DNA of 64,000 nt from Escherichia phage HMD-P3, in the sequence record PQ462667.1; one strand, given 5' to 3'. How positions within the stretch are numbered: position 1 is the stretch's first letter; every line of letters starts with the position of its first letter. This document shows, in pieces, positions 2,471 to 38,134 of this stretch. The notes below the pieces were generated by a model, which made no database searches, was not told the DNA's origin, and saw only the letters and a program-made list of their open reading frames with translations. Both the position numbers and the translations under genes were made by a program.

Positions 2471-2532
2471 ATATGTTATGGATGAGTGATCAAAGAGACA
2501 CACATTTTCTATATACTAGGAGGTGTCAAAAA

Positions 2533-3525
2533 ATGACAGAAGAAGTAGCTAAGAGTCCTGAGACCGTCGCTAGCGTTGCAGCAGAACTGCACCGTCACGA
2601 GGAATCAGATAAGAAAAAGTGGGAGAAGGTCAGAGCCTACGAAGAAAAACATCGTGAACACGATGAAGATGATGAAGAAGATGACGATGATGAACATTGT
2701 CATAAATATGGAAAACATAAAATGCAAGAACCAGTAAACGTATTCACTAGTGGCTTCCCTGGCCTAATGGGCGGTTACCCAGCAAACGCAGGTGCTTTTG
2801 GTGGTGAAGGTATGGGTCTATTCGGAGCTATCCTAATCGGTGCTCTATTAACAGGCGGATTCGGTGGTTTCGGTGGATTCGGTGGACGTGGTGTAGTTGG
2901 TGATGGTAGCGCAGTTGATGCAGTGCTTCAGAATCAAGATACCGCTAGTATTCTAGCAGCTATTAACACTACTCGTACAGAAGCTAATCAGGGTACTGGA
3001 GCTGTTTTAAGCGCAGTTAATAATGGTTTTAGCCAGACATCCCAAAACCAGAGCCGTGATACTCAGTCTGTACTAACTACGATCTATGGTACGGGTGCTA
3101 ATCTGTCTAATCAAATCTGCCAGGAAACTCGCAACGTTATTCAGGGTCAGTTCGATCTTTCTCGCCAGATTGATCAATCTTTCGCAGCTAACCAGATAGC
3201 TCGTGCACAAGATAAGTTTGATTCTGCACAGATCGCTTTCCAGCAGACTTTACAAACTAATAACCAGTTTGCAGCTGTTCAGGCTCAGATGTGTGCTAAC
3301 CAGAACTCTCTGGAACGTCAGATCGCTGAATGTTGCTGTGAACTTCAGACTGCGATCGCTGGTGTAACTACTGCACGTATCCAGGACGAGTTAGACGCAT
3401 GTCGCCTACGTGAAGCAATCGCTGCGGGTAGTGGTGCTAACGGTCAGGTAATTAATCAAATCGCTTTAAGTCTTGGTGCTATCACTCAGACTCTGGCTGG
3501 TCTGCAGGCTAAACTGCCGGCTTAA
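2533..3525 (+). CDS. low-complexity protein: acidic/His-rich N-terminus, glycine-zipper hydrophobic segment, Q/N/A-rich C-terminal domain (about 330 aa from the RBS-supported start)
   Basis: Strong RBS (AGGAGG) 7 nt before ATG at 2533 (the track ORF begins at 2473 without an RBS); segment GLFGAILIGALLTGGFGGFGGFGGRG; CCC and further Cys in the C-terminal part. Confidence 0.55.
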   Translation: MTEEVAKSPETVASVAAELHRHEESDKKKWEKVRAYEEKHREHDEDDEEDDDDEHCHKYGKHKMQEPVNVFTSGFPGLMGGYPANAGAFGGEGMGLFGAILIGALLTGGFGGFGGFGGRGVVGDGSAVDAVLQNQDTASILAAINTTRTEANQGTGAVLSAVNNGFSQTSQNQSRDTQSVLTTIYGTGANLSNQICQETRNVIQGQFDLSRQIDQSFAANQIARAQDKFDSAQIAFQQTLQTNNQFAAVQAQMCANQNSLERQIAECCCELQTAIAGVTTARIQDELDACRLREAIAAGSGANGQVINQIALSLGAITQTLAGLQAKLPA

Positions 3526-3546: not shown

Positions 3547-3963
3547 ATGAGTAAATATGGTTTTGTAAATAACGGACTTAATCAAAGTATGGGCTCCCAG
3601 CAGCCCATTCCAGGTCTGGATAACCCCTACTTACAACAGTTGCAACAGCGTTTAGCAGAAGCGCAACAGATGCAGCAACAACTCCAGCAAAATCCTAGAA
3701 GTGTGAGTCCTATACAAATGATGCAGCAAATGAGCGGGCAGTCGCAAATGCCTCAACAAATGCAGCAACAGATGCCGCAGCAGCAAGTTCAGCAACAAAC
3801 CCAACAACCGCAGGTTTCTGCGGAAGGACAGGCAGTACTAGCCCTTTTCGAAGACTTCGCAAAGACAGAGGATGGGAAGCAGCTTGTATCACTTATGGGT
3901 AAGTTTAATAGCTTCTGCCAAAGCCAAATTGCAAAAGCTCAAAATAGCGGTGATAACTCCTAA
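3547..3963 (+). CDS. glutamine-rich low-complexity protein (138 aa)
   Basis: RBS GGGGAGG upstream; about 35% Q in the central region (QQMQQQLQQ..., PQQMQQQMPQQQVQQQTQQPQ). Confidence 0.5.
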   Translation: MSKYGFVNNGLNQSMGSQQPIPGLDNPYLQQLQQRLAEAQQMQQQLQQNPRSVSPIQMMQQMSGQSQMPQQMQQQMPQQQVQQQTQQPQVSAEGQAVLALFEDFAKTEDGKQLVSLMGKFNSFCQSQIAKAQNSGDNS

Positions 3964-3972: not shown

Positions 3973-4167
3973 ATGTGTTGCAGAAAATCTGTTTCGTGCT
4001 GCCCAATGCCTGTAGCACGTTGTTGCTCTCCAGCAATGTTTACGCAAATACCGGCGTTCAATCCGTTTGCCTTTAAGCCTACTCTTATCCTGCCCCCTAG
4101 AGTAGATTTTCAGTCAAGATTGGCCTCCCGTATGGGTGGTTGCTGTACACCGAGAGTGTGGTTCTAA
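3973..4167 (+). CDS. small cysteine-pair-rich protein (64 aa)
   Basis: RBS AAGGAGG upstream; four CC dipeptides (MCC, SCC, RCC, GCC). Confidence 0.4.
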   Translation: MCCRKSVSCCPMPVARCCSPAMFTQIPAFNPFAFKPTLILPPRVDFQSRLASRMGGCCTPRVWF

Positions 4168-4180
4168 ACCAAAAAACAAA

Positions 4181-4215
4181 AGCCCCTGCCGAAAGGTAAG
4201 GGGCTTTTTCTTTTG
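4181..4215 (+). terminator. rho-independent terminator
   Basis: Stem agcccct/aggggct with 11-nt loop followed by tttttctttt. Confidence 0.65.
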
Positions 4216-4219: not shown

Positions 4220-4259
4220 AAATACAGAAAAGCCCGCGCTCTCAGAGGAAACGCGGGCT
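4220..4259 (-). terminator. rho-independent terminator for the SPFH gene
   Basis: Perfect 8-bp stem agcccgcg/cgcgggct; on the minus strand it is followed by a U-run (revcomp of acagaaa). Confidence 0.6.
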
Positions 4260-4283
4260 TGGTTAGAAGATTACGTGTAACTA

Positions 4284-5231
4284 TTACTTGTTACGCATAT
4301 CCATGATCATTTGACCATCGTAGCCAGTACCTACCACAGTCTGAGGCACACCACCTTGATACTTCTGAGCACGAATCATTTCAACTTCCAGTTGCTTCCA
4401 GCGAATCATCTCAGGAGTAATGGTACGTTGCAATGCGGCGTTAGCTTCAGCTTCTTTTTTAGCTGCGTACAGTTTAGCATCTGCGTCACGTTCATTAGCA
4501 ATAGCTTGGTTGTTGCGAGCTTCACGATCTGCTTCTGCTTGTTTAACTTTTTGCTGTGCTTCCTGTTCAACGCGGGCAAGTTCAGCTTTCGCAGCGTTAA
4601 CTTGCTCTTCACGAACTTTGGTATTCTGTACCTGTTCCATGATTACCGGTGGCAAAGTAATATCCTGAAGAAACACCTGCTTAACTGTGTAACCATATGG
4701 GCGTGCATACTCTTCAACTTCCTGTTGAATTGCAGTTTGCAATTGAGCCTGAATTTTAGCATCAAACAAATCTTGTGCTTTAGGTACAGACTTACCAAAC
4801 TCACGAATAGTAGACAGTAATTTTTCAGTTACATATTTGTCTAATGCTTGATCCTGGGTACCTGCATTAATACGGTTAATCGGTGCCTTAGAACCATCAA
4901 ACTGCAACATAACAGTCAGGTCAACAGTGGATTTAAACTTATCCTGACTAGGAACCTGAAGTTTATCTAATTTTAGAGCAATATCTTTAGTACTAAAAGT
5001 ATCGAAAGAAGCAAAAGGATTTACAATATGAAAGCCGGGTAATACTGGGCTAGGGTCAACTTTACCCAGGAAAGTCTGGGTTTTAACAGTACCGTCTTGG
5101 ACAACAGTATAAGAGTTAAGAGCCAGAACTAAACCTACCAAACCAACTGCAGCACCAATACCCCAACGTTTGATATTACGCATTAATTTTTGCTCATAAG
5201 TCAGTTCTTTAGTGTTTTTAGTAGCAAACAT
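4284..5231 (-). CDS. SPFH/band-7 (prohibitin/HflK/C-like) membrane protein
   Basis: N-terminal TM helix (WGIGAAVGLVGLVLAL), central SPFH-like region, C-terminal charged coiled coil (EQVNAAKAELARVEQEAQQKVKQAEADREARN...). Confidence 0.65.
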   Translation of the reverse strand: MFATKNTKELTYEQKLMRNIKRWGIGAAVGLVGLVLALNSYTVVQDGTVKTQTFLGKVDPSPVLPGFHIVNPFASFDTFSTKDIALKLDKLQVPSQDKFKSTVDLTVMLQFDGSKAPINRINAGTQDQALDKYVTEKLLSTIREFGKSVPKAQDLFDAKIQAQLQTAIQQEVEEYARPYGYTVKQVFLQDITLPPVIMEQVQNTKVREEQVNAAKAELARVEQEAQQKVKQAEADREARNNQAIANERDADAKLYAAKKEAEANAALQRTITPEMIRWKQLEVEMIRAQKYQGGVPQTVVGTGYDGQMIMDMRNK

Positions 5232-5265
5232 ATATTTCCTTTGTTTTAGTTACAGTTAATAAAAT

Positions 5266-5340
5266 TGGCCGAGGTGACAGGATTCGAACCTGCATAAAGG
5301 AATTTAGAAGACTCCTGCCTCTCCCTTAGACTACACCTCG
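5266..5340 (-). tRNA. tRNA-Arg (anticodon TCT)
   Basis: Sense CGAGGTG...GGAGT-CTTCTAA-ATTCC...GCAGGTTCGAATCCTGT-CACCTCG-G-CCA; anticodon loop CUUCUAA. Confidence 0.8.
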
Positions 5341-5832
5341 TTTAAGTATTTTTAAGAACTCTCGTAAAAACTCTTAAAAATACAGACGATACCGGGAGAG
5401 TCATAAGTCTCACTCATTAAGTATTTCAAGACAAAATACGGTAACGTCTACTATTTTCCAGTTTAAGTCAGGGTGACTTAGTGGTTATGTCCTGCGGTAT
5501 ATTGAGGACTCGGTTAGGCTCGGGGTCATGACTTCCCGCCTTTTGCTGCTACTCAACAGGAGTTATCGCGAATTACCTGTGCTATTGTGCACCATTAGTG
5601 ACATCTCTCATGCCAGCATTTCCCACTTTGTGGATAGCTTGAAAAACTACTCCGATATGGAGAAAGAACTTCACTATCCTAGAATACCTTCTAAAGTTCT
5701 TCTTTAGCCTGGACATAGTTAAATCGTAATAAAACTATTCAGCAGACTGGTTGGTTAGTCTGGAACCAACTACCGCGTGGTTTAGGCAGTGCGCAACTAA
5801 CCTCGGAAGCTTTTACTTTAAAAGCATCAGTT

Positions 5833-5914
5833 ATCCAGTTCTTACCGACCATAGGATTCGAACCTACATCTTCCACCAGTTACGGCTTGATAATACCAAT
5901 TATACTAGGACGGC
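5833..5914 (-). tRNA. tRNA-like element (perfect T-arm, imperfect acceptor, anticodon arm not resolved)
   Basis: Sense contains GTAGGTTCGAATCCTAT and acceptor-like GCCGTCC/GGTCGGT with one mismatch; no clean cloverleaf by eye. Could be a divergent or degenerate tRNA. Confidence 0.4.
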
Positions 5915-6129
5915 AGTGTTACTACATAAGTGATTTCCACACCCCACTATTTATAAATTAGAGAAGAGTTTAGGGGAGAGGTTTCAGACGCCTCATTTTA
6001 CACGTTCTAGCCACTAACCGGGATTGCCGCCCCCTGTGTACTAGTTTTACAACTAACCCACCGACTCTATTCAATGCGCTTCGGTTGGGATTATGCATTC
6101 AGCGTAATCGGCTCGCTGTTCCCTAATTT

Positions 6130-6178
6130 ATGAATATATTATACAGAATTTAAAGGCATTTAGCAAATAAATTTTTAA
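6130..6178 (-). promoter_or_regulatory. T5-type early promoter (minus strand) upstream of the tRNA-containing transcription unit
   Basis: Reverse complement aaaatttatttgctaaatgcctttaaattctgtataatatattcataaatt closely resembles T5 PN25 (-35 TTGCTa, -10 TATAAT, A/T-rich upstream). Confidence 0.6.
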
Positions 6179-6618
6179 TTAAATTCGCCAGCAATCTGAG
6201 CAGCAGTACCACCATCATAACGCCCAGGAAATTCTTCCTTAATCGCTTTCATCAGCATACCTTTTGTAATTCCAGGGTTTAGCTTAACTAATTCTGCAAA
6301 GTATTTACGAATCTCAGTATCAGATAACTGAGGAGGCAGATACTCCTGCAACCACTTATTTAGAATGTATTCATACTGAGCAGACTGCAAGCTATAGCTA
6401 TCAAGATCTTGACCATGAAGTTTAGCTTTCATCTGGTTAATGCTTTTTAGTTGAGCTTTGAGATAAGACACAAATTGTTCAGAAGTGATGAAATCTTTAT
6501 CAATACGCTGAAGATCCCCGATTATGGTCTGATAACTTTTAGCGACTTCTTTATCAGAACCATTAAACTTAGAATCCTGCAAAGCTCTACGCAAAACATC
6601 TAAAATATTCTCTTCCAT
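6175..6618 (-). CDS. GatB/YqeY-domain protein
   Basis: C-terminal YLPPQLSDTEIRKYFAELVKLNPGITKGMLMKAIKEEFPGRYDGGTAAQIAGEF matches the GatB/YqeY pattern. Confidence 0.6.
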   Translation of the reverse strand: MEENILDVLRRALQDSKFNGSDKEVAKSYQTIIGDLQRIDKDFITSEQFVSYLKAQLKSINQMKAKLHGQDLDSYSLQSAQYEYILNKWLQEYLPPQLSDTEIRKYFAELVKLNPGITKGMLMKAIKEEFPGRYDGGTAAQIAGEFN

Positions 6619-6788
6619 TATTTCATTCCTAGCGCTTGGTTAAAAGATTGTTCTGTCATAACTGCTGAGACTTTGGCGAAATCAAACTTTTTAGGGTTCG
6701 TAGTGATTTCAGCAACGTTAGAAGTTTTAACAGTTTTCGTAGTACGAATACCGCGAGTGTTAACACCAATAATTACAACTGATTTCAT
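6618..6788 (-). CDS. possible small ORF (56 aa), translationally coupled to the GatB/YqeY gene
   Basis: ATG preceded by GAGAGG; stop overlaps the downstream start (ATGAAATAATG); below the 60-aa track cutoff. Confidence 0.3.
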   Translation of the reverse strand: MKSVVIIGVNTRGIRTTKTVKTSNVAEITTNPKKFDFAKVSAVMTEQSFNQALGMK

Positions 6789-6807: not shown

Positions 6808-6862
6808 ATTTATGGAAGTATTATACGGAAATTTAAGTAGTTAAGCAAGTAAATTTTTAAGT
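6808..6862 (-). promoter_or_regulatory. T5-type early promoter (minus strand)
   Basis: Reverse complement cttaaaaatttacttgcttaactacttaaatttccgtataatacttccataa. Confidence 0.55.
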
Positions 6863-7324
6863 TTTAGTGACAACAGGTTTATAGAATGTATGTCCCTTAA
6901 TTTTAGTTGTTTTCTTAAATTTCTTTGTCCAGTAAGGTTTATCTTTACCACTATGGAAGTATAGTGCTCCATGTGTAGGATCTTGTGGTAAATCAACGTA
7001 GTATATCACTCTAGCTAAATTCTTAGCGGTTTGCCAAGCCTCATCAGTTTTATCAACTTTTGGTCTCTTAGATACCCAAGAGAACTGGTTAGACTGATAT
7101 ACTACTTTACAGTAGGAATCTGGGAATTTACCGGAGTTTACACGGTTTTTAGTAACATGTGCAATCGCCGTCATTCCCTTTATGCCCTCACCACGACTTT
7201 CGAAATAGATATTTTTAGCAATGCAATCTATTTCTTTTGCATCGTGCGATGCCTGACTACTAAAGCTGAAGGTAAGGGCAGCTACTAAAAGCAAAGCTGC
7301 CTTCATTCTTTTTACTCCTGCCAA
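6857..7324 (-). CDS. secreted cell-wall hydrolase, SleB-like
   Basis: N-terminal signal peptide (MKAALLLVAALTFSFSSQA); core IAKNIYFESRGEGIKGMTAIAHVTKNRV...VVYQSNQFSW matches the SleB-type cell-wall hydrolase signature. Confidence 0.65.
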   Translation of the reverse strand: MAGVKRMKAALLLVAALTFSFSSQASHDAKEIDCIAKNIYFESRGEGIKGMTAIAHVTKNRVNSGKFPDSYCKVVYQSNQFSWVSKRPKVDKTDEAWQTAKNLARVIYYVDLPQDPTHGALYFHSGKDKPYWTKKFKKTTKIKGHTFYKPVVTKT

Positions 7325-7629
7325 TCATATTCAACACGATTGGGATTTTCTTTATACCCTAAGTCAAGCAAATCATTACGCATATTTTGCTTAGCTACTG
7401 GGTTCGAGGTTACTAGTACCACTTTCTTTGGTCTCTGCCCAAATTCTAATAGTAAACGAAGAATTTGATAACCTTCCATACCATCTACAGCCAAGTCATT
7501 ATCCATATAAACGAAATGGCCTGTGGTATCAGTTTTATTCAGAAACTCTACAGCGGCTTCTGGGGTTCGAATGATAATGTCCATTCCGTGAAGATTACGC
7601 ACATCATCAATCAAAATATGAAAAGTCAT
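7312..7629 (-). CDS. hypothetical protein, possibly receiver (REC)-like fold (105 aa)
   Basis: Acidic motifs in REC-like spacing (ILIDDVR, VYMDNDL, VLVTSNP); weak, by eye only. Confidence 0.35.
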   Translation of the reverse strand: MTFHILIDDVRNLHGMDIIIRTPEAAVEFLNKTDTTGHFVYMDNDLAVDGMEGYQILRLLLEFGQRPKKVVLVTSNPVAKQNMRNDLLDLGYKENPNRVEYDWQE

Positions 7630-7705: not shown

Positions 7706-8071
7706 GAAACTAGTAAACCGATAAACAGCCTAGAGGCGCCACAGGCCATACCTTATGAGCCATGTACCTTTGATCTAGGGTTTTAATCATCAACGAATAC
7801 TTTGCATCTTTTAGCTTTAGAAGTTTAGAAGTTTGAGTTCTTTAAACTTTTCAGCTTTCATACTTAAATGTTGATCTTTGAAGTTGTGTCGGTAATATCA
7901 ACGACGCTTTGTTTTTACGTGTCAGCTTAAAAGGCTGGTGTAATAAACATAATCTCCAATAGATTATACTTTATAGTATGGTCAGCGGTCCTATTTAACC
8001 TCGTATTTCAACCGCTGCTGCGAGGTAAGATGCTTGGGCTTTCGTCTACCGATTTACTAGCTTTTAAATTA

Positions 8072-8710
8072 TTACTCTACTTCAATGAAGGTAGAGGCGT
8101 TAGACTCGGACAGAACAAAGTCAACATTTGTTGCAAAGTCCTGATATTCCTCGTCATGCTGCTTAATCAGCTTTTCCAGTTCCAGCGGATCAATCAAGAA
8201 TGGAGTATTCTTGAGTTCCAGCAGGTTGAGCTGCATTTTAACTTCATCTTCGGAAGTTTTCTTATCGCGAGTAGCCATGCTATCCTGCAAACGCTCATAT
8301 TTAGCATCAAACTGTGCTTTCTGCGTATTAAACTTAACCGTAGCGGCATGGAACTGCTTACGCATGTTAGCAAGCAGTTGAGCTTTAAGTTCCATAGAAC
8401 GCTTAGCTTCAATTGCTTCCGCAACAGTCATCTTACGAGAGCCAATCTCAACGATTGTTTCTGCATTGCTCTTAATCAGAGCAGATTTGATACTATCACG
8501 CTTAGACATCATATCCAGCAGAGACTGGAAATCAGTCTTAATACGAGTAGACAGATCGGCTACTTCGATTGCAGCGCCAACTACAACCTGGTTTTTATCC
8601 TTACCTTCACCAACAGCGATCAGAAGCTGCTGTTCAGTAGCTTTACGGATTTTAGCTTCCAGAGATTTGATAGTTGCCAGAGCACGAGTTTTAGAAATAC
8701 GAGTAGTCAT
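8072..8710 (-). CDS. hypothetical protein (212 aa)
   Basis: ORF with RBS; overlapping plus-strand ORFs are shadow frames; followed by a roughly 440-bp non-coding tail. Confidence 0.55.
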   Translation of the reverse strand: MTTRISKTRALATIKSLEAKIRKATEQQLLIAVGEGKDKNQVVVGAAIEVADLSTRIKTDFQSLLDMMSKRDSIKSALIKSNAETIVEIGSRKMTVAEAIEAKRSMELKAQLLANMRKQFHAATVKFNTQKAQFDAKYERLQDSMATRDKKTSEDEVKMQLNLLELKNTPFLIDPLELEKLIKQHDEEYQDFATNVDFVLSESNASTFIEVE

Positions 8711-8763
8711 TATTTGCTTCCTTATATGAAGTTTGAGATTTGAATTTGTTTGAATTTGGTCTA

Positions 8764-8946
8764 TTACAGACCAATTGCCAGCAGAGTGCGCAGAACAGTA
8801 TCGTTACTGTTATCAATTTTAGGATTAGCACGATTTAGTAGATTAAAGATTTTCTGGATACCTGATTGACGTTCAGCCATACGACGGATACCCAGATTAC
8901 GAGTAGCTTTCTTACCATTTTTACGAACATTTTTAGATACTGGCAT
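8764..8946 (-). CDS. small basic protein (60 aa)
   Basis: Lys/Arg-rich N-terminus; T5-type promoter immediately upstream (8962-9018). Confidence 0.4.
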   Translation of the reverse strand: MPVSKNVRKNGKKATRNLGIRRMAERQSGIQKIFNLLNRANPKIDNSNDTVLRTLLAIGL

Positions 8947-28936: not shown

Positions 28937-29233
28937 ATGACCAAAGCTGAAATTATCGCACAATGTGAAAAATTTGGTGAGTTTTATCTTCATTACGAGA
29001 AACTTCGTCAGAAAGGAACCACGTACCTTCAGGGTACGATGGAATTTGATCCAGCCCAAGATAAATATCTGGCTGAGCGTATTAAACGTGAACGTATTCG
29101 TAAAGCGAAAGATGATGAAATCCTTGTCTTCTCTCGTACTAATGATAGCTTCCGTTTTATTCCTGTCGAGAAAGTCCGTCGTGTGACTAGCCTCCAATCA
29201 GAGTTAGATCGTGCTTCTCCAGTAGGCCGATAA
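28937..29233 (+). CDS. hypothetical protein (98 aa)
   Basis: ORF with RBS AAGGAAC. Confidence 0.45.
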   Translation: MTKAEIIAQCEKFGEFYLHYEKLRQKGTTYLQGTMEFDPAQDKYLAERIKRERIRKAKDDEILVFSRTNDSFRFIPVEKVRRVTSLQSELDRASPVGR

Positions 29234-29283
29234 GAAACCAATTAGCCCCTATATGGGGCTTTTTGTGTATTTGGGATATGTAA

Positions 29284-29592
29284 ATGAGCGAACAGGTAAA
29301 TCAAAACTATGAAGGACACGTTGATGACCAGTCCATCATACTTTGGGAGAAGGAGGGAGAACAAGTAAGATTAACAGTATCTGAATTTCGTGGGAATCTA
29401 TACATGGGTATTCGTTACTGGCTTCTTGATATTAATGATGAATGGTTTCCAACGAAATCTGGCTTCTCTTTTCCTTACACCCTAGAAACAACATCACAGC
29501 TTTTCTATGCGTTTACACAGATTCTTAGCGAATCTGAGGTTTTACATGAAGTACAGAAACGAGCTGAAGAACTCAAAGCCAAGAATGCCTAG
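29284..29592 (+). CDS. PC4/Sub1-like ssDNA-binding protein
   Basis: VRLTVSEFRGNLYMGIRYW fits the PC4 C-terminal domain signature; a PC4-like protein is documented for T5. Confidence 0.55.
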   Translation: MSEQVNQNYEGHVDDQSIILWEKEGEQVRLTVSEFRGNLYMGIRYWLLDINDEWFPTKSGFSFPYTLETTSQLFYAFTQILSESEVLHEVQKRAEELKAKNA

Positions 29593-29604
29593 TTCTTGGC
29601 TTTT

Positions 29605-29676
29605 TCTTTATAAATGTATTTGCTTTCAACTCAGTTTTGTTATATAATATTTATATAAATTGATGAGAGGATCAAT
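29605..29676 (+). promoter_or_regulatory. T5-type early promoter
   Basis: tgtatttgctttcaactcagttttgttatataatatttatataaattgatgagagg. Confidence 0.55.
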
Positions 29677-29866
29677 TATGAACATAACACTTCCAAAAAT
29701 TCAAGCAAAGTTAAACCTAGTATCAACTGCTAGAAATAACTATCTAGATAACTTTGGTGGAATCAACGATAAAGCGTACAAAGATGCGTGGTTGAAAGAA
29801 GCGCAAGAGTTAGCCGATCTCACTACTCAGTATAGTAAAGAACTACAGGTAGAAATGAATGACTAA
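29660..29866 (+). CDS. hypothetical protein (68 aa)
   Basis: ORF immediately upstream of, and overlapping, the ligase N-fragment. Confidence 0.4.
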   Translation: MMRGSIMNITLPKIQAKLNLVSTARNNYLDNFGGINDKAYKDAWLKEAQELADLTTQYSKELQVEMND

Positions 29867-30830
29867 TGTAAAAGACTTTATTAAACGTTGTCAAGAAGCA
29901 TATTACCAGGGAATGTCTTTAATCTCTGACGAAGAATATGATCGTCTGATTAAAAGATTTCCGTTAGAAGAAGAGATCGGGCCTAAGGGTGATATTCCAC
30001 ATCTGTATCGTATGTATTCTTTACAGAAAGTTTATTATAATCGTGGAGATAAACCTCCGTTTAACCCATTAGGTCAGGTAGAAACTGATAAGTTAGATGG
30101 TTGTGCGATTTCTCTGTTATATATTAATGGCGAATTTGTTCAAGCACTAACTCGTGGTAATGGTATTCTAGGGAACGATGTCACAAGCAACGTAAGATTG
30201 CTGAACATTCCTAAAAAGATTTCCCAAAAAGTACCTACTCAAATCACTGGTGAAGTTCTAATTACAAAAGAAGTAGAAAATAAACGTAACTTTGCCTCTG
30301 GTGCTATTAACCTCAAAGATAGTGATGATTTCGTACAGCGTATCGGAGAAGGTGGTTTAATCTTCGTTGCATACGGTATCCAGTGTTCTGGTGAATCTGT
30401 AGGTATTACAGAAACGTATTTAAAAGATATGCTTTGGCTAGAGAATGAGAACTTCTTAACAGTTGTTAATGTGCGTTCCTTCTTTAAGTGGATTCCAACG
30501 GATGGTAAAGTTGTTCGTATTAATGACAACAACAAATTCTTCCGAGAAGGCTGGACTAATAAATTTCCTCGTGGAGCATTCGCTATTAAAGAGGATGAAG
30601 AAGGTGAGATTACTACTCTTACTAAAGTTGAATGGCAGGTAGGGGCTTCTGGTAAAGTAACTCCAGTTGGTTATTTCGAACCGGTAATTATTGATGATGC
30701 TACAATTGTTAAGGCGACTCTTAATAACGTTGATTATATTAACTCTCTCGATCTAGAGATCGGTTGCCAGATTCGAGTAATTCGTGCTGGTGGTGTAATC
30801 CCGTGCATAGTAGAGCGAGTATACGATTAA
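29859..30830 (+). CDS. ligA: NAD-dependent DNA ligase, N-terminal fragment (adenylation + OB domains)
   Basis: EEYDRLIKRF, adenylation lysine motif KLDGCAISLLY, TRGNGILGNDVTSNV and an OB-domain tail align to bacterial LigA. Confidence 0.85.
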   Translation: MTNVKDFIKRCQEAYYQGMSLISDEEYDRLIKRFPLEEEIGPKGDIPHLYRMYSLQKVYYNRGDKPPFNPLGQVETDKLDGCAISLLYINGEFVQALTRGNGILGNDVTSNVRLLNIPKKISQKVPTQITGEVLITKEVENKRNFASGAINLKDSDDFVQRIGEGGLIFVAYGIQCSGESVGITETYLKDMLWLENENFLTVVNVRSFFKWIPTDGKVVRINDNNKFFREGWTNKFPRGAFAIKEDEEGEITTLTKVEWQVGASGKVTPVGYFEPVIIDDATIVKATLNNVDYINSLDLEIGCQIRVIRAGGVIPCIVERVYD

Positions 30831-31029
30831 TACATAACCCTTTGCTACCCATCTACCATATCGGAATTATAAAGTGGTTATTGACATTTTCGCCGCTTAG
30901 GTATATACTATTATCATTCAGTTGAGGGATAGAAAGTTATGGCGAGGGTAAGCAAAGTTAGTTAAAATTGTAGTTGCTAAATGCTTAAATACTTGCTATA
31001 ATATTTATATAAATTGATAAGGAAGAAAT

Positions 31030-31812
31030 TTGATGAAAATCGAAATTCCAATACAATGTCCCTCTTGTGGTTCTAAGCTAGATCTTGTCAACGGACAATT
31101 ATTCTGTCGGAATAAGTCCAACTGTCCAGCGCAATCAAGTAAGTTAATTGAGAACTTCTGTACAAAAATGAAGTTAAAGGGCTTTGGCCCAAAAACTATT
31201 GAGAAGCTGGAGCTGACGAAGATTTCAGAACTATTCTACCTAACCGAAGAAGATTTGGTTAGAGCCGTGGGTAGCAAGGTTGCCGCTAAATTAATTAGCG
31301 AATTAAATACTAAAGTTCGCGGAGACATTGACTTTGGTTCAGTTCTCGGTTCTTTAGGAATCCCTCTAATTGGAGAGGTTGCAGCAAAGAAATTATCCCA
31401 AAATTGCACTAGCTTCCACGATGTGAAGGCTGACGGCAAGGCTGGAGAAAACTATAAAACCTGGCTAAATTCCCCACAAGGCAAGGATGTTATTGAATTA
31501 CCGTGGAAATTCTCAACTGGTATCAGAGGTGCAAAAGCTAATATTATCATTACAGATGAATTAGTTGCCCAGCCAAACGGAATCGCGGTATGTATTACCG
31601 GATCTTTGCAAGATTTTGCAAATCGAACGGATGCAACAAACTATTTAGAAAGTCTAGGATATACGGTTAAGAAATCCGTTACCAAAGACGTCAAATACCT
31701 AATCTGTGAGGATGAATCAAAACGTTCTTCCTCATCTTATAAGAAAGCCGAAACGAATGGGATAGAAATCCTGTCGATTAAAGAACTATTGGAGAAAAAT
31801 AATAATGTCTAA
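31030..31812 (+). CDS. ligB: NAD-dependent DNA ligase, C-terminal fragment (Zn finger, HhH, BRCT)
   Basis: CPSCGSKLDLVNGQLFCRNKSNCPAQ (LigA Cys4 zinc finger), helix-hairpin-helix segment, BRCT-like ICITGSL...; separated from the N-fragment by a 199-bp gap carrying promoters. Confidence 0.85.
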   Translation: MMKIEIPIQCPSCGSKLDLVNGQLFCRNKSNCPAQSSKLIENFCTKMKLKGFGPKTIEKLELTKISELFYLTEEDLVRAVGSKVAAKLISELNTKVRGDIDFGSVLGSLGIPLIGEVAAKKLSQNCTSFHDVKADGKAGENYKTWLNSPQGKDVIELPWKFSTGIRGAKANIIITDELVAQPNGIAVCITGSLQDFANRTDATNYLESLGYTVKKSVTKDVKYLICEDESKRSSSSYKKAETNGIEILSIKELLEKNNNV

Positions 31813-32572
31813 ACTGAACTGGAACGTAGAAGGTGTAACCGAGTCTCTGAAAGCAAAAGCCACTGCTCTGGGTGTTGCTGTAATCTCTCAAGAACAAGTA
31901 GCTGCTATCGCTGCTGAACTGGCTGCTGAAACTGGCAAAGACGTTACAGCTCGCTCTGTCGGCTCTAAACTGCGTAAAGAAGGTTTTGAAGTACAGAAAG
32001 CTAACGAAGTACAGAAATCCCCGTGGACTCCTGAGCAGGAAGCTGAACTGGTTGATTTCCTGAACGCTCATGCTGGTCAGTACACCTATGCTGAAATCGC
32101 TGCTGCTGTAGCTGGTGGTCAGTTCGGTGCTAAACAGGTACAGGGTAAGATCCTGAGTCTGGAAATGACCGCTTCTGTTAAGCCAACCGAAAAAGCTGCT
32201 GCTGTTCGTTCCTTTACTCCAGATGAAGAAACTGATTTTGTTAATCAGGTTGTTGCTGGTGCTACTATTGAAGCTATCGCTGCTCACTTCGGTCGTAATA
32301 TCAAGCAGATCCGTGGTAAAGCTCTGAGCCTGCTTCGTGAAGGTCGTATCGCTGCTATGCCGGTACAGGAAACTTCAAGTGCTAAAACTCGTGAAGATCT
32401 GTTAGAAGGTCTGGATCTGGTTAACATGACTGTTGCTGAGATCGCTGAGAAAACTGGTAAGTCTGAGCGCGGTGTTAAATCTATGCTGTCTCGTCGTGGT
32501 CTGGTTGCTAAGGACTATGATGGTGCCGCTAAGCGTGCTAAACTGGATGCAAAAGCTGCGGCTGCTGAATAA
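31805..32572 (+). CDS. protein with three tandem ~50-aa alpha-helical repeats
   Basis: Three repeats of the form (T)PE/DE..E.V.F.N...G.T..EIAA..G.....V.GK.LSL...; the third continues ...MTVAEIAEKTGKSERGVKSMLSRRGL (HTH/SAP-like); terminator downstream. Confidence 0.55.
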   Translation: MSKLNWNVEGVTESLKAKATALGVAVISQEQVAAIAAELAAETGKDVTARSVGSKLRKEGFEVQKANEVQKSPWTPEQEAELVDFLNAHAGQYTYAEIAAAVAGGQFGAKQVQGKILSLEMTASVKPTEKAAAVRSFTPDEETDFVNQVVAGATIEAIAAHFGRNIKQIRGKALSLLREGRIAAMPVQETSSAKTREDLLEGLDLVNMTVAEIAEKTGKSERGVKSMLSRRGLVAKDYDGAAKRAKLDAKAAAAE

Positions 32573-32588
32573 TCTGGTAAATTAAACC

Positions 32589-32622
32589 TAAGGGGAGGGG
32601 GCTATGCTCCTTCCCCTTTTTG
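32589..32622 (+). terminator. rho-independent terminator
   Basis: aaggggagggggctatgctccttcccctttttg: G/C-rich stem with T-run; the track ORF start at 32604 lies inside it. Confidence 0.6.
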
Positions 32623-32654
32623 CATTTAGAAGGCACGAAAGCGTGCAAAGGAGA

Positions 32655-34127
32655 ATGACCTTGTTTAACGTGCAAGCTGTAGTGTTGAAGATGCTTCTCG
32701 CTTCTGAACAGAAGCAAATAGCATTGGAAACATTCTCAAAACTGCATAAAGATCATTTTAATGACGCTTTCTCCTCAATTTACCAAGCCGTCCAGAATTA
32801 TTATAAAAAATATAACACAATGCCGTCCATTGACGCACTTATGCTTGAAGCTAATAGGAACGCCCGCCTTTCTCAAGCTCTAGTCGTCTTAGCTAACACT
32901 CAAATTCCAGAAGTGAGCATGGAACAGGCACTTGAAGTCCTAGAGGCTGAATATACACAGGATTTATTCCTGAAGCTTCTAGAAACAGACGTGCTTCAAG
33001 ATTTAACAATGCTGGATCAGGGAGAAATTCTCAACCGAGTTGCCTCCCTTCACTTAAAATTAGAAGAGAAAGTAACGAATACTGGAAAAGTATTCAACGC
33101 AGATAACATGCGTATTTTCCAGAGAGAAGAAGATACCAAACTGAACTTAATCGCTCTTGGTATTTGTAATGAGTTCGACGCTCAAATTGGTTTAGCTCGC
33201 ACAGAAACGTTACTGCTTGGTGGTTGGCGTGGTACTGGTAAATCCATTATCTGTTCAAACATACAGGTTCAGCAATATTTGAATGGAGATATTGCTCCAT
33301 ACTTCTCAATTGAGATGAAAGAACATGAAGTATTTAGACGTAATCTAGCCATGTTAGCAGGTGTATCAGCACTAGCAATGCGTAATAATACTCTAGAAGG
33401 TGCAGCTCTGTTGAGATTAGCCAGAACTAGAGCTAGAATGTTTAATGGTGGTGAAGAGCTTTTTGATAACTTCGTTAAACAGTACACAATGGCTAAGATG
33501 AGTGATTTCTACGATATGGAGAGTAAGCTAATAGAAGGATATGAGCTACATACTCCTATGATTATTGTTTATGACCCTGAGCTGTCTATTACAACAGTTG
33601 ACGTAGAACTAAATAAATTAGTTGCTAGATATGGAGATAAAGTTACAGTAGCTTTACTGGACTATATTAACCAAACCCGACTTCCAGATTCTAAAACCAT
33701 TGATATGTATGACTGGAAAGAACAGATGGTTGTTAGCTCGTCTTTCAAATCTATCTGCCAGAAACATAACGTGGCTGGTGTAGCTCCTTACCAGATCGAT
33801 CAAGATGGTAGAACACGTATGTCAAAGGGGATTCTTGATTCCGCGGATATGGCTGCTAATCTTAATGCTGCAAAAGCTGATAATGGTCAAGGTGCTATTA
33901 TGTTTGACTTCGTTAAGACTCGTTCTTCTGATAGCGTGAAGTTTATGCCTAAGATGAACTGGGAAACTCTGCGAATGGATAACACTACCAACCTAGCAAT
34001 GGAAGACATATCTCAAATGGAAGCTGAGTTCGTTATCCCTATTGAGAAGGATAAGCCGGCTCAACCTAAACGTGCTAAGAAAGACAAAGCTGAAAATTCA
34101 ACAGGTGAACAGGCCAGCGATATATGA
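32655..34127 (+). CDS. DnaB-like / RecA-fold replicative helicase
   Basis: Walker A LLGGWRGTGKS and Walker B-like VALLDYINQ; start set to ATG 32655 (RBS AAGGAGA; a TTG at 32661 is an alternative) rather than the track start inside the terminator. Confidence 0.6.
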   Translation: MTLFNVQAVVLKMLLASEQKQIALETFSKLHKDHFNDAFSSIYQAVQNYYKKYNTMPSIDALMLEANRNARLSQALVVLANTQIPEVSMEQALEVLEAEYTQDLFLKLLETDVLQDLTMLDQGEILNRVASLHLKLEEKVTNTGKVFNADNMRIFQREEDTKLNLIALGICNEFDAQIGLARTETLLLGGWRGTGKSIICSNIQVQQYLNGDIAPYFSIEMKEHEVFRRNLAMLAGVSALAMRNNTLEGAALLRLARTRARMFNGGEELFDNFVKQYTMAKMSDFYDMESKLIEGYELHTPMIIVYDPELSITTVDVELNKLVARYGDKVTVALLDYINQTRLPDSKTIDMYDWKEQMVVSSSFKSICQKHNVAGVAPYQIDQDGRTRMSKGILDSADMAANLNAAKADNGQGAIMFDFVKTRSSDSVKFMPKMNWETLRMDNTTNLAMEDISQMEAEFVIPIEKDKPAQPKRAKKDKAENSTGEQASDI

Positions 34128-35014
34128 GTAGAATAACAGAACTACTTGATCTGAAAGGCATTGAATATAAAGACACAGGTGGGGACATCCTCATCTGTTG
34201 TCTCAATCCAGATCATGACGATAAACACCCAAGTTTGCGTATTGATCCTGAAACAGGTATTATGCACTGCTTGAGTTGTGGCTTCGGTAAAGGTATACCG
34301 AGCATTTACCATTATTTTAATGAGACTCAGTACCGACAGTCCCCAAGGCTATCGCAAGTACGCAAAAAGATTTCAGAGATTAGGAATGGATCAACGAATC
34401 TTGCAATTCCTGAATCTGCTTACCTTTTCGAAGGTGATTTCCGAGGTATAAGTTCTAAGACCTTGAAGAAATATTTTGCTTTCCAACACCAAGCAGACTG
34501 GGAAGGCAGAATTGTATTCCCAATCACAGATGCTGTTGGACGCAATATCCTATTTTTGGGTCGTTCTATAAACAGTTCTGCCCCTCCTAAATACTTAGTA
34601 AAACCAAAACAAGTTTCACCACCGATTTTCCCTGTACGATATAATACTCCAGTTCTTATTCTAGTTGAAGGTATCTTTGATATGCTGAACCTAGAGGATA
34701 ATGGTATAGACTATGCTTCTTGCTGCTTTGGTACACATCAGTTTACTTCGGATAACATTGCAGATAAGTTCAGTCCTTATATTATTGCGGGTGTAAAAGT
34801 TGTTGTTATCTTACTAGATAATGATGCTTCTGGTAATAAGGCTGCACAAGCATTGGCCAAATTAATTCGTACAAAAACGCGTTTAACACCTGTAGTGGCT
34901 AACTTTCTTCTGCCTGAGGGTAAAGATCCTGGTGAGTTAAACAAAGATGAAATTGATATGTTAGCAAAACGTATTGAAATTTTAGTTGCTGAATCGCTTA
35001 AAGATTTGGTATAA
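34124..35014 (+). CDS. DnaG-type DNA primase
   Basis: N-terminal zinc-binding CCLNPDHDDKHPSLRIDPETGIMHCLSCG; Toprim VLILVEG...VVILLDNDASGNKAA. Confidence 0.8.
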   Translation: MSRITELLDLKGIEYKDTGGDILICCLNPDHDDKHPSLRIDPETGIMHCLSCGFGKGIPSIYHYFNETQYRQSPRLSQVRKKISEIRNGSTNLAIPESAYLFEGDFRGISSKTLKKYFAFQHQADWEGRIVFPITDAVGRNILFLGRSINSSAPPKYLVKPKQVSPPIFPVRYNTPVLILVEGIFDMLNLEDNGIDYASCCFGTHQFTSDNIADKFSPYIIAGVKVVVILLDNDASGNKAAQALAKLIRTKTRLTPVVANFLLPEGKDPGELNKDEIDMLAKRIEILVAESLKDLV

Positions 35015-35076
35015 TATATTGGTAAGTTAGAGAAGAAACACTGAAGTTATACTTACTTACCAAGAGGAGATTAAAT

Positions 35077-37644
35077 TTGAAAATCGCAGTAGTTGATAAA
35101 GCTCTAAATAACACTCGTTACGATAAACATTTCCAGCTATACGGCGAGGAAGTTGATGTATTCCATATGTGTAACGAGAAGTTATCTGGTCGTTTGCTTA
35201 AAAAGCATATTACTATTGGAACACCAGAAAACCCATTCGATCCGAATGATTATGATTTTGTTATACTAGTAGGTGCTGAACCTTTCCTGTACTTTGCAGG
35301 TAAGAAAGGTATTGGTGACTATACTGGTAAACGTGTAGAGTATAATGGATATGCTAACTGGATTGCGAGTATCAGCCCAGCCCAGTTACACTTTAAGCCC
35401 GAAATGAAACCAGTTTTTGATGCAACAGTAGATAATATCCACGATATTATCAATGGTCGTGAGAAGATTGCAAAAGCTGGTGATTACCGTCCTATTACTG
35501 ACCCTGACGAGGCGGAAGAATATATCAAGATGGTGTATAATATGGTTATCGGACCTGTCGCATTCGACTCCGAAACCTCAGCACTATACTGTCGAGATGG
35601 TTATCTGCTTGGTGTTTCTATGTCTCACCAAGAGTATCAGGGTGTATATATCGATTCTGATTGTCTCACAGAGGTTGCAGTATATTATCTCCAGAAAATT
35701 CTGGATAGTGAAAACCACACTATTGTTTTTCACAACCTGAAGTTTGATATGCACTTTTATAAGTACCATCTGGGACTTACTTTTGATAAAGCACATAAAG
35801 AACGCAGGCTCCATGATACTATGTTGCAGCATTATGTCCTAGATGAGCGTCGTGGTACTCATGGCTTGAAATCTCTAGCAATGAAGTATACCGATATGGG
35901 TGACTATGACTTTGAACTAGATAAGTTCAAGGAGGATTACTGCAAAGCACATAAAATCAAGAAAGAAGATTTCACCTATGATTTAATTCCGTTTGATATT
36001 ATGTGGCCTTACGCTGCAAAAGATACCGATGCCACCATACGTTTACACAACTTCTTCTTACCAAAAATTGAGAAGAACGAAAAGCTTTGCAGTCTGTATT
36101 ATGATGTTTTGATGCCTGGTTGTGTATTTCTCCAGCGTGTTGAGGATCGTGGTGTACCTATTTCTATTGATCGTTTAAAAGAAGCTCAGTACCAGTTAAC
36201 TCATAATCTGAATAAAGCTCGTGAAAAGCTGTATACTTATCCAGAAGTAGTTCAGCTAGAGAAAGATCAGAATGAAGCGTTTAACCCAAACTCTGTTAAA
36301 CAACTCCGTGTTCTTCTGTTTGACTATGTTGGCTTAACTCCAACAGGTAAATTGACGGATACTGGAGCAGACTCTACAGATGCAGAAGCTCTGAACGAAT
36401 TGTCTACGCAGCATCCAATTGCTAAGACTCTACTAGAGATTCGTAAGCTGACTAAGCTGATCTCTACTTACGTTGAAAAAATTCTTCTGAGTATTGATGC
36501 AGATGGTTGCATTCGTACTGGTTTCCACGAACATATGACTACTTCTGGTCGTCTGAGTTCTTCTGGTAAACTGAACCTGCAACAGTTACCTCGTGATGAA
36601 TCTATTATCAAGGGCTGTGTAGTAGCTCCTCCTGGGTATCGTGTAATTGCTTGGGACTTAACAACTGCGGAAGTTTATTATGCTGCTGTTCTATCTGGGG
36701 ATAGAAATATGCAACAAGTATTTATCAACATGAGAAATGAACCTGATAAATACCCTGACTTCCACTCTAACATCGCACACATGGTATTTAAGCTCCAATG
36801 CGAGCCTCGTGATGTTAAAAAGTTATTCCCAGCTCTGCGTCAAGCAGCTAAAGCAATCACCTTTGGTATTCTGTATGGTTCTGGCCCAGCTAAAGTAGCT
36901 CATTCTGTTAACGAAGCTCTTCTGGAACAGGCTGGTAAGACAGGCGAACCGTTTGTAGAGTGTACTGTTGCAGATGCTAAAGAGTACATTGAAACTTACT
37001 TCGGTCAGTTCCCACAGCTTAAGCGTTGGATTGATAAGTGTCACGACCAGATCAAGAACCATGGATTTATCTATAGTCACTTTGGTCGTAAACGTCGTCT
37101 GCATAATATCCACTCCGAAGACCGTGGTGTTCAGGGTGAAGAAATCCGTTCTGGATTTAACGCAATCATTCAGTCTGCTTCTTCTGATAGTCTCCTTTTA
37201 GGTGCTGTAGATGCAGATAATGAGATCATTTCTCTTGGCCTAGAACAAGAGATGAAGATTGTTATGCTGGTTCATGACTCCGTAGTTGCTATTGTTCGTG
37301 AAGACTTGATCGACCAATACAATGAAATCCTGATTCGTAATATCCAAAAAGACCGTGGTATCAGTATTCCTGGCTGTCCGATTGGTATTGATTCTGATTC
37401 TGAAGCTGGAGGTTCTCGTGACTACTCTTGTGGTAAGATGAAGAAGCAACATCCATCAATCGCTTGTATTGATGATGATGAATATACTCGTTATGTTAAG
37501 GGTGTATTACTTGACGCAGAGTTCGAGTATAAGAAACTAGCTGCAATGGATAAAGAGCATCCAGATCATAGCAAATACAAGGATGATAAGTTTATTGCTG
37601 TATGTAAAGATTTGGATAACGTGAAAAGGATTCTCGGTGCTTGA
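35077..37644 (+). CDS. DNA polymerase, family A, with 3'-5' exonuclease domain
   Basis: 855 aa, matching the T5 DNA polymerase length; exonuclease motif VAFDSETSALY; C-terminal polymerase region with RQAAKAITFGILYGSG (motif B-like) and VMLVHDSVV (motif C). Confidence 0.9.
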   Translation: MKIAVVDKALNNTRYDKHFQLYGEEVDVFHMCNEKLSGRLLKKHITIGTPENPFDPNDYDFVILVGAEPFLYFAGKKGIGDYTGKRVEYNGYANWIASISPAQLHFKPEMKPVFDATVDNIHDIINGREKIAKAGDYRPITDPDEAEEYIKMVYNMVIGPVAFDSETSALYCRDGYLLGVSMSHQEYQGVYIDSDCLTEVAVYYLQKILDSENHTIVFHNLKFDMHFYKYHLGLTFDKAHKERRLHDTMLQHYVLDERRGTHGLKSLAMKYTDMGDYDFELDKFKEDYCKAHKIKKEDFTYDLIPFDIMWPYAAKDTDATIRLHNFFLPKIEKNEKLCSLYYDVLMPGCVFLQRVEDRGVPISIDRLKEAQYQLTHNLNKAREKLYTYPEVVQLEKDQNEAFNPNSVKQLRVLLFDYVGLTPTGKLTDTGADSTDAEALNELSTQHPIAKTLLEIRKLTKLISTYVEKILLSIDADGCIRTGFHEHMTTSGRLSSSGKLNLQQLPRDESIIKGCVVAPPGYRVIAWDLTTAEVYYAAVLSGDRNMQQVFINMRNEPDKYPDFHSNIAHMVFKLQCEPRDVKKLFPALRQAAKAITFGILYGSGPAKVAHSVNEALLEQAGKTGEPFVECTVADAKEYIETYFGQFPQLKRWIDKCHDQIKNHGFIYSHFGRKRRLHNIHSEDRGVQGEEIRSGFNAIIQSASSDSLLLGAVDADNEIISLGLEQEMKIVMLVHDSVVAIVREDLIDQYNEILIRNIQKDRGISIPGCPIGIDSDSEAGGSRDYSCGKMKKQHPSIACIDDDEYTRYVKGVLLDAEFEYKKLAAMDKEHPDHSKYKDDKFIAVCKDLDNVKRILGA

Positions 37645-38134
37645 TTTCAAATTGCCCGTATATGCTTTACGGGCGTTTGTATCAATTGAGCAGGAAGGTG
37701 ATTATTCCGTAATTACAACAAGATATAATAAATATGTGCTAGATAACAGGAAGTTGCCTGGCACTTTTTCTCAACGTAGACTTATTCTATTTGAGAAACG
37801 GAAAGAATTACCGTACAAGCTCTACCCTATTAGAGGTAGAATATCAATGTTGTCTCAATTAGTTGGGTCAAAGCGTAGCCAATTTATAGATTCTGATGGA
37901 AATCTTATTAACTGGAAGAAAACTACGTTCTATGATGTTGTCACCTCTAAAGTTTTGCATTCAGCTAGAATTTATAACGGAAAATACCAATGCTATGTAG
38001 CTAAAGTTCCATATCCATTTGTATTATCCTATGTTCCAGCTTATATAAGCTATATTCTGGTAAATAATAGCCCTGTTATTTATCAAGTCCATCAAGAGGA
38101 GCCTGAAATTCCTAGACTTAGAATAAAATTATGA
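37637..38134 (+). CDS. hypothetical protein with atypical codon usage (165 aa)
   Basis: Sits between polymerase and helicase with ATGA-type overlaps at both ends; rich in AGA/AGG/ATA/CTA codons that are rare in flanking genes. Confidence 0.45.
   Translation: MLDFKLPVYALRAFVSIEQEGDYSVITTRYNKYVLDNRKLPGTFSQRRLILFEKRKELPYKLYPIRGRISMLSQLVGSKRSQFIDSDGNLINWKKTTFYDVVTSKVLHSARIYNGKYQCYVAKVPYPFVLSYVPAYISYILVNNSPVIYQVHQEEPEIPRLRIKL

Follow-up and report, generated by a model that had tools for sequence, protein, structure and literature searches.

A gene for a predicted periplasm-facing SPFH protein at the end of a tRNA-region transcription unit in T5-like phages

The stretch of Escherichia phage HMD-P3 analyzed here (PQ462667.1; 64,000 nucleotides, hereafter the window) contains, on its minus strand, a gene for an SPFH (band-7) membrane protein. 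The gene is the orthologue of T5.080 of phage T5 (YP_006908.1), with 94.9% amino acid identity; its counterpart in Salmonella phage 5 is 'ORF trn 1.1'. The surrounding region is 96–98% identical to many T5-like phages (Demerecviridae, Markadamsvirinae), for example Salmonella phage GSP044 and Escherichia phage HdH2. The SPFH open reading frame (ORF) is the last gene of a transcription unit that runs from the promoter P16-17 through RNAX and tRNA-Arg to the SPFH ORF and two hairpins. The unit is made up of the following features.

6138–6166, minus strand: sigma-70-type promoter TTGCTA-17-TATAAT, the counterpart of T5 P16-17 (consensus scan 10/12), at a site just after a YqeY-like ORF as in AJ604531 and NC_005859.
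5341–6130 (boundaries approximate), minus strand: RNAX, a stable RNA of about 0.8 kb (by homology; misc_RNA rnaX in AJ604531 and NC_005859).
5266–5340, minus strand: tRNA-Arg (anticodon TCT), 34 nt upstream of the SPFH ATG (ARAGORN; Rfam tRNA model 51.2 bits).
5237–5240, minus strand: ribosome-binding site AGGA, 5 nt before the ATG (from the sequence; a ribosome-binding site is annotated at the equivalent place in AJ604531).
4284–5231, minus strand: SPFH/Band-7 gene with an ATG start, 315 amino acids and a TAA stop (ORF list).
4220–4260, minus strand: proximal intrinsic terminator, a 12-bp stem with 7 G-C pairs followed by a T-rich tail (hairpin 4260–4230; terminator scan and sequence).
About 4171–4210: distal hairpin, ter1, bidirectional, with an A-run and a T-run on its flanks (from the sequence).

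The curated records AJ604531 and NC_005859 annotate the same unit, with P16-17, RNAX, tRNA-Arg, the coding sequence and a bidirectional terminator. In both records, ter1 is annotated at the equivalent offset as an 'efficient bidirectional rho-independent terminator'. The proximal hairpin is also annotated as a putative terminator in MK373796. A preliminary description made from the sequence alone placed a 315-residue protein at 4284–5231 in the tRNA-region transcription unit, with a terminator of its own. The ORF is exact on the minus strand, and the promoter, tRNA-Arg and ribosome-binding site of the unit are all present. The terminator is the gene's own only in part: the proximal hairpin is private to the SPFH gene, and ter1 is common to the SPFH unit and the convergent T5.077–079 operon. 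On the T5 map, the gene belongs to the early region. The tRNA-region promoter P15A, a neighbor of P16-17, is early by primer extension (PMC7472727).

The encoded protein is a genuine SPFH (band-7) membrane protein. Its parts are listed below from the N-terminus.

Residues 1–22 (5166–5231, minus strand): basic tail with 6 K/R, predicted to be cytoplasmic and poorly conserved (composition, alignment).
Residues 23–41 (5109–5165, minus strand): signal-anchor transmembrane (TM) helix (hydropathy maximum, AlphaFold2 helix 12–39).
Residues 42–192 (4656–5108, minus strand): SPFH alpha/beta core (SPFH1 and SPFH2), predicted to be periplasmic (AlphaFold2 strands and helices, Pfam).
Residues 195–270 (4422–4649, minus strand): single charged, Ala-rich helix of 76 residues, the first coiled coil (CC1) and putative cage wall (AlphaFold2; predicted local distance difference test, pLDDT, 80–90).
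Residues 273–290 (4362–4415, minus strand): second helix, CC2 (AlphaFold2).
Residues 291–315 (4287–4361, minus strand): C-terminal tail (CT), a candidate oligomer cap (conservation; pLDDT <50).

The N-terminal TM helix, SPFH-like core and long charged coiled coil that the preliminary description had proposed are all recovered. The hydrophobic stretch at about residues 23–41 has a Kyte-Doolittle mean of 1.8. The Pfam Band_7 profile (PF01145) matches residues 52–225 with E=2.5e-17 and 63.9 bits, against a curated cut-off of 23.6. Residues 206–275 contain 12 K/R, 14 D/E and 18 Ala. The protein also matches PHROG 200 (E=1.5e-85). A PHROG 'protease' match (1.1e-3, residues 185–288) lies within the coiled coil and is disregarded. 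In NCBIfam there is no meaningful match, and no HflK or HflC model is matched.

An AlphaFold2 monomer model was built from an alignment of 44 diverse homologues and has a mean pLDDT of 78.5. It consists of a helix at residues 12–39 that includes the tail and TM segment, an alpha/beta core at about 41–192, an uninterrupted helix at 195–270, a helix at 273–290 and a low-confidence tail at 291–315. The predicted structure has the SPFH fold: in a Foldseek search of the Protein Data Bank (PDB), the top 37 matches are all SPFH cage subunits, with about 270–316 columns aligned. The closest are erlin1/2 (E=4e-14), prohibitin 1/2 (1e-12) and HflK/C (2e-12), followed by stomatin (1e-11), QmcA (1.6e-10) and flotillin (3.5e-8). 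Neither of the two outcomes that would have refuted the preliminary description, the lack of a significant SPFH profile match or of the SPFH fold, is observed. The CC1 helix of the phage protein aligns with the CC1 of erlin, prohibitin and HflK/C. These three lie on the non-cytosolic side of the membrane and have an N-terminal TM anchor followed by the order SPFH1-SPFH2-CC1-CC2-CT (PMC12624060).

Invariant columns of the alignment are mostly in the SPFH core, for example V93-P-S-Q-D-K98. The least conserved part is the N-terminal stretch of about 25 positions, where the consensus is undefined, and the predicted periplasmic body is the most conserved. The tail is near-invariant at Y291, G293, V295, P296, T298, G301, D311 and R313 and is disordered in the monomer model. 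A tail that is conserved yet disordered in the monomer is expected if it becomes ordered only in an oligomeric cap. By analogy with the CT regions of erlin and prohibitin (PMC12624060), this may be the case here.

By sequence comparison, the T5.080 family is a small distinct clade within the very large SPFH superfamily. A HMMER scan of 1.84 billion representative proteins returns 910 matches at E<=0.001 and 34 at E<=1e-30. With tblastn, the gene is found at 724 places in 723 phage records, which corresponds to one copy per genome. Identity to the window protein is distributed across the phage groups as follows.

T5-like siphoviruses: 88–100%.
T4-like myoviruses of Klebsiella, Enterobacter, Cronobacter and Citrobacter (Pseudotevenvirus and relatives, including RB43 ORF139c): 75–83%.
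Grimontviridae of about 90 kb and 7-11-like phages of Salmonella, Cronobacter and Proteus: 74–80%.
Aeromonas T4-likes: about 63%.
Vibrio phages and Aeh1, SPFH core only: 33–44%.

The clade is thus common, as judged by alignment, to Demerecviridae, Straboviridae and Grimontviridae at about 75% identity, and it extends to the chromosomes of Providencia and Morganella. By the profile scores given below, the T5.080 protein is orthologous to no E. coli SPFH protein. The SPFH locus is present in 449 records and the DNA-polymerase gene of the window, used as a control, in 443 at >=80% identity (both counts include GenBank/RefSeq duplicates), so the SPFH gene is essentially universal in close T5 relatives. 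The ratio of nonsynonymous to synonymous substitution rates (dN/dS) against T5 is 0.056, which indicates strong purifying selection and shows that the ORF is no chance reading frame. Between phage families, synonymous sites are saturated (proportion of synonymous differences, pS, >= 0.75) and about 74% of residues are identical. This combination indicates old, maintained acquisitions and not recent transfers. A blastn search of 5,426 complete E. coli genomes does not find the gene at that sensitivity.

Damaged copies occur in a few phages. The gene is reduced to its last 42 codons in NG_S8 (LC788711), is in two pieces in KKP 3953 (OR067837) and is split into two annotated ORFs in 7-11 (HM997019). 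A truncated or split copy is also present in 'bastian'. These copies are either occasional natural losses or sequencing frameshifts, and they are consistent with dispensability.

In a scan of one genome per prokaryotic species, chromosomal copies with 55–60% identity are present in five Providencia and eight Morganella genomes (loci L011–L023, match at 8001–8934). These copies stand alone and carry the same signal-anchor as the phage proteins. Decarboxylase, permease, TetR, alcohol dehydrogenase, racemase, phosphotransferase-system and ABC-exporter genes flank them, with a different set in each genus. A prophage origin is rejected because the flanking genes are ordinary, genus-specific and without prophage features. 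Two chromosomal copies compared across the genera have 89% protein identity with saturated synonymous sites. The chromosomal copies are, to judge from these comparisons, functional cellular genes.

In an unbootstrapped neighbor-joining tree, the chromosomal copies nest within the phage radiation. The enterobacterial-phage copies of three families cluster together, apart from the Aeromonas T4-likes. This branching pattern suggests that the clade tracks the host and not the phage lineage. The chromosomal copies look like the domestication of a phage gene, or the reverse. The sequences point to capture of the phage SPFH gene by bacteria at least once, in the Morganellaceae. Several other apparent bacterial matches are not counted as cellular homologues. 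These are contigs of about 174–178 kb filed as bacterial or plasmid (P0025, P0059 and P0061; Klebsiella 'plasmid' and Enterobacter asburiae) and a 178,077-bp contig filed as 'Flagellimonas marina' (L010; NZ_JBHSCL010000010.1). All carry the T4-like version of the gene, and their size and gene content suggest complete T4-like phage genomes that are mislabelled in public databases.

The sequences argue strongly for a periplasmic SPFH body in an N-in/C-out orientation, with the basic tail in the cytoplasm. In close homologues, the mean net charge is +2.5 over the 15 residues that precede the hydrophobic segment and 0 after it, and 117 of 120 proteins have the higher charge on the preceding side. 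Among distant full-length clade members, 15 of 122 have a lipoprotein signal in place of the TM anchor. The lipobox Cys of these proteins lies exactly at the junction with the conserved SPFH start, for example LLLGSC/SIETVPAGH in a relative that is 50% identical to the window protein (P0123; the slash marks the junction). Since lipoproteins are exported and extracytoplasmic, the SPFH body of the T5.080 family would be periplasmic. Either membrane tether, a TM anchor or a lipid, would appear from these variants to suffice for the family.

There is no second SPFH ORF in the window, and no NfeD-like ORF is detected there by phmmer with YbbJ and YqiJ, a single-sequence search of limited sensitivity. 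Likewise, no NfeD gene, second SPFH gene or protease gene lies beside the SPFH gene in any of four phage and two chromosomal contexts. In an all-against-all comparison of the flanks of these six contexts, the only shared neighbors are those of T4-like synteny (tk, rI) and one SleB/CwlJ-type Hydrolase_2 gene. In the window, this SleB/CwlJ-type hydrolase is encoded at 6857–7324 on the minus strand, 1.6 kb from the SPFH gene (Pfam Hydrolase_2, 2.4e-25). It has an N-terminal signal peptide and is therefore exported, and it is distinct from a classical late endolysin. In phage CsaP_009, an unrelated member of the Grimontviridae, a homologous Hydrolase_2 'endolysin' is encoded 1 kb from the SPFH gene. 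Phages leB (Pseudotevenvirus) and phiAS4 have the lysis-inhibition gene rI near the SPFH gene, at a distance of one gene in the former and of 3 kb in the latter.

The identity of the gene as SPFH is not new, since public records already name it 'SPFH domain / band 7 family protein' or 'PHB domain-containing protein'. A list of 2006 names SPFH genes of the phages 44RR, Aeh1 and RB43 without a function (PMC1524935), and the function of phage SPFH proteins is described as 'poorly understood' (PMC7760394). T5.080 is mentioned in no paper of the searchable literature, nor is its orthologue g069 in the proteogenomic paper on phiR2-01. For phage-encoded SPFH proteins in general, the literature search returned gene lists and no functional study. 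This agrees with the earlier statement that the role of the protein in infection is uncharacterized. The roles suggested there, in modulation of host membrane proteases, superinfection exclusion or the site of DNA entry, are speculative. The present analysis adds the periplasmic orientation, a correction of the 'lipoprotein' label discussed below, and a partner-free clade that spans three phage families and the Morganellaceae. It also adds the selection and core-gene statistics and the link to a published result of no fitness effect.

That result, the only functional datum for the gene, comes from a genome-wide CRISPRi-ART screen of T5, in which T5.080 is scored 'Not Fit' (7 guides, mean -4.28, p 0.85), like its neighbors (PMC11879866). 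On this evidence, T5.080 is dispensable on the laboratory host. Classical viable deletions in the T5 tRNA region end at 38625, short of T5.080 (PMC11464382). The deletions of T5Mos (30661–38625) and T5-123 (29191–32442) are set aside as tests of dispensability, as both miss T5.080 at 39791–40738. The HIDEN-SEQ transposon maps are of T4, Bas37 and Bas54 and include no T5-like phage. The gene is thus an accessory one: it can be dispensed with in the laboratory, but purifying selection on it is strong and nearly all close T5 relatives carry it. It is likely to be conditionally important, with no effect on a laboratory strain and retention in essentially all close T5 relatives.

The best explanation, with a probability of roughly 55%, is an early SPFH protein that forms a periplasmic, HflK/C-like dome on the inner membrane and controls the access of clients to FtsH or to other machinery. 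The N-terminal signal-anchor helix would hold the protein in the host inner membrane, with the whole SPFH-CC1-CC2-CT body in the periplasm. Early in infection, the protein would most likely assemble into a ring or dome, as does every solved SPFH protein of the same layout. Solved SPFH complexes have common assembly principles (PMC12624060; PMC13086221). As the gene is present in a single copy without a partner gene, a homo-oligomer would be expected. The dome would be closed at the top by the conserved C-terminal tails and would wall off an area of inner membrane on its periplasmic face. By analogy with the three closest structural relatives, the dome would then most likely control the access of inner-membrane proteins to the quality-control protease FtsH or to other enclosed clients, and in this way the phage could protect or organize membrane proteins during infection. 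FtsH is the leading guess for the target, by analogy with HflK/C-FtsH, prohibitin-m-AAA and erlin in endoplasmic-reticulum-associated degradation.

Several points weigh against this explanation. The family profile scores highest against QmcA among the E. coli paralogues (1.2e-11), ahead of HflC (9.5e-8) and HflK (0.06), and does not match YqiK (E=6). The analogy with HflK/C is therefore one of topology and fold, not of orthology. When the charge count is calibrated on the E. coli paralogues, it is clear for YqiK only and ambiguous for HflK, HflC and QmcA, so that the predicted topology rests mainly on the lipobox variants. The T5-like copies contain V-L-A/L-N, a possible signal-peptidase I site, and the protein would be soluble in the periplasm if it were cleaved there. 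Assembly into a cage is proposed by analogy with solved relatives, and the AlphaFold2 model is of a monomer. The link to FtsH is likewise drawn by analogy. Early timing of P16-17 is deduced from record annotation and from the neighboring promoter. Lastly, with no fitness effect in the CRISPRi-ART screen, no phenotype backs any mechanism.

A first alternative, possible but clearly less probable than the dome described above, is a role in superinfection exclusion or competition between phages. An inner-membrane assembly would cover or immobilize host components of DNA entry and so protect the infected cell or the Morganellaceae that domesticated the gene. A gene of the early region without a fitness effect in single-phage laboratory infection is compatible with such a role, as is a body that faces the periplasm from an anchor in the inner membrane. 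The stand-alone chromosomal copies in Providencia and Morganella, which are under purifying selection and outside prophages, also point in this direction. The grouping of the unbootstrapped tree by host group, not by phage family, is expected if the partner is a host component. On the other side, no PADLOC-DB defence model is matched at E<=1. Known exclusion proteins are usually small and fast-evolving, whereas the T5.080 protein has 315 residues and is about 75% identical across phage families.

Somewhat less probable again is a factor for envelope integrity or lysis timing. Here a periplasmic scaffold would either stabilize the inner membrane or confine a secreted wall hydrolase or proteins of the holin/antiholin type, and the cell would stay energized until the programmed time of lysis. 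The SPFH gene lies near periplasm-acting, lysis-related genes in three unrelated lineages (rI in leB and phiAS4, and Hydrolase_2 in CsaP_009 and in the window). This nearness is suggestive, but the association is loose, was noticed post hoc and is given little weight. The SPFH positions in T4-likes lie in a known variable region, and the main holin-endolysin cassette of T5 is elsewhere in the genome. The gene is also in the early and not the late region, and its knock-down has no fitness effect.

A broader reading, more doubtful than either alternative above, is that the phage builds a periplasmic SPFH compartment that captures a specific host machine. It would act as a counter-defence or exclusion device and would have been domesticated by the Morganellaceae. 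Candidates for the machine are FtsH, a 5:2 motor (Tol/Exb or the Zorya defence motor; compare the FliL rings around stators) and a component of DNA entry. If true, this would be the first function for a viral SPFH cage, and it would provide a homo-oligomeric, partner-free model of client selection by SPFH cages. Such cages (HflK/C, prohibitin, erlin, stomatin and flotillin) are universal, and the way in which they select and process their membrane clients is under debate. The version that virulent phages of three unrelated families have kept under strong selection is encoded by one gene, has no partner and seemingly faces the periplasm, and it would be a simple system for this question.

A cytoplasm-facing protein of the stomatin/QmcA type is very unlikely. 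QmcA is the best E. coli paralogue by the family profile, as given above, and is also the best PDB sequence match (1.9e-6). However, no NfeD gene adjoins the SPFH gene or is detected in the window, and in fold the protein is closest to erlin, prohibitin and HflK/C, which are non-cytosolic. The 15 of 122 relatives with a lipoprotein signal at the anchor position and the strongly basic N-terminal tail also argue against it.

The reading of the T5.080 protein as a lipoprotein, which is the description of PHROG 200 and a label on many GenBank/RefSeq records, has next to no chance of being correct: it is refuted for the window copy, which has zero cysteines, and a lipobox is present in 1 of 120 close homologues (Morganella phage Mm5). 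The label is explained by the lipobox variants in a minority of distant relatives and fits only these. The annotation of T5.080/PHROG 200 is therefore incorrect for the majority of members, and the appropriate name would be 'SPFH domain membrane protein, periplasmic'.

Other features of the region lie on both sides of the SPFH gene. The convergent operon that shares ter1 contains three genes on the plus strand, at 2473–3525, 3547–3963 and 3973–4167, which are the equivalents of T5.077–079 and have no Pfam match. The product of the first has 350 amino acids; its N-terminus is acidic and His-rich, its C-terminal half is rich in Q, N and S, and it contains a hydrophobic glycine-zipper stretch, GLFGAILIGALLTGGFGGFGGFGG. 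That of the second has 138 amino acids and is glutamine-rich, and that of the third has 64 amino acids and four Cys-Cys doublets. T5.077–079 are all 'Not Fit' in the T5 CRISPRi-ART screen (PMC11879866). On the minus strand, directly upstream of P16-17, are a YqeY-like ORF at 6175–6618, which is just under the Pfam threshold (25.4 vs 27 bits) and has the RefSeq label 'tRNA amidotransferase', and a 56-residue DUF7616 protein at 6618–6788 (4.7e-33). A protein of 105 amino acids at 7312–7629 (minus strand) is the T5.084 equivalent and matches the Pfam cREC_REC 'cyclic-phosphate processing receiver domain' (3.8e-15). A stand-alone receiver-like domain of this kind is unusual for a virulent phage.

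Within RNAX, the interval 5843–5914 (minus strand) scores 33.7 bits with the Rfam tRNA model (gathering score 29, E=1.2e-4), and ARAGORN calls no tRNA there. RNAX thus seems from its sequence to contain a tRNA-like or degenerate tRNA element. The T5 nick consensus Pu/GCGC is present as A/GCGC at 4236–4240 (minus strand; the slash marks the nick), in the 3' arm of the proximal terminator hairpin and 44–45 nt past the coding sequence. This offset matches the 'major DNA single-chain interruption' of NC_005859, so that the major nick site and the terminator stem coincide.

Among viral proteins, RB43 ORF139c and the 44RR/phiAS4-type proteins are true members of the T5.080 family, with 60–82% identity. 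The T5.080 record cites ORFs of Aeh1 and 44RR (44RR ORF098c and Aeh1 ORF064c). The Aeh1 and Vibrio phage proteins match T5.080 in the SPFH core only, at the 33–44% identity given above. Other viral SPFH proteins, from Vi01-like, RaK2-like, Vibrio, Rhizobium and Streptomyces phages and from Mimiviridae, are related at the level of the fold only, with 13–21% identity. Function is unassigned in all of the phage and giant-virus SPFH proteins compared (PMC1524935, PMC7760394).

Among cellular proteins, T5.080 does not fit the flotillin/YqiK type, for which an extended flotillin-type helical region (about 420–550 residues) would be expected. It has 315 residues, its family profile does not match YqiK, and flotillin is a weaker fold match (3.5e-8). 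The QmcA-YbbJ system resembles T5.080 in that QmcA is the best sequence match, has 305 residues and is homo-oligomeric in its SPFH subunit. It differs in orientation and partner: QmcA faces the cytoplasm and has an NfeD partner encoded in its operon (PMC13086221), whereas T5.080 is without NfeD and is predicted to face the periplasm. Prohibitin (PHB1/2) and erlin1/2 are the best fold matches and share the TM-SPFH1-SPFH2-CC1-CC2-CT layout and the non-cytosolic location (PMC12624060). Unlike T5.080, they are eukaryotic hetero-oligomers of two paralogues, with 15–20% identity to it. T5.080 also has a conserved C-terminal motif of its own, GGVPQTVVG...MD.R.K.

HflK and HflC are an obligate pair of adjacent paralogues that form an alternating heteromer, whereas T5.080 is one gene and is encoded by a virulent phage. 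Identity in structural alignments is 17–19%. T5.080 resembles them in its single N-terminal TM anchor, in its predicted periplasmic body and in the order SPFH core-CC1-CC2-tail. The Foldseek match is full-length (2e-12; 7vhq, 7wi3 and 9cz2), and HflC has 334 residues to the 315 of T5.080. HflK and HflC form a periplasmic cage around FtsH, and it is by analogy with this cage that an association of T5.080 with FtsH is proposed.

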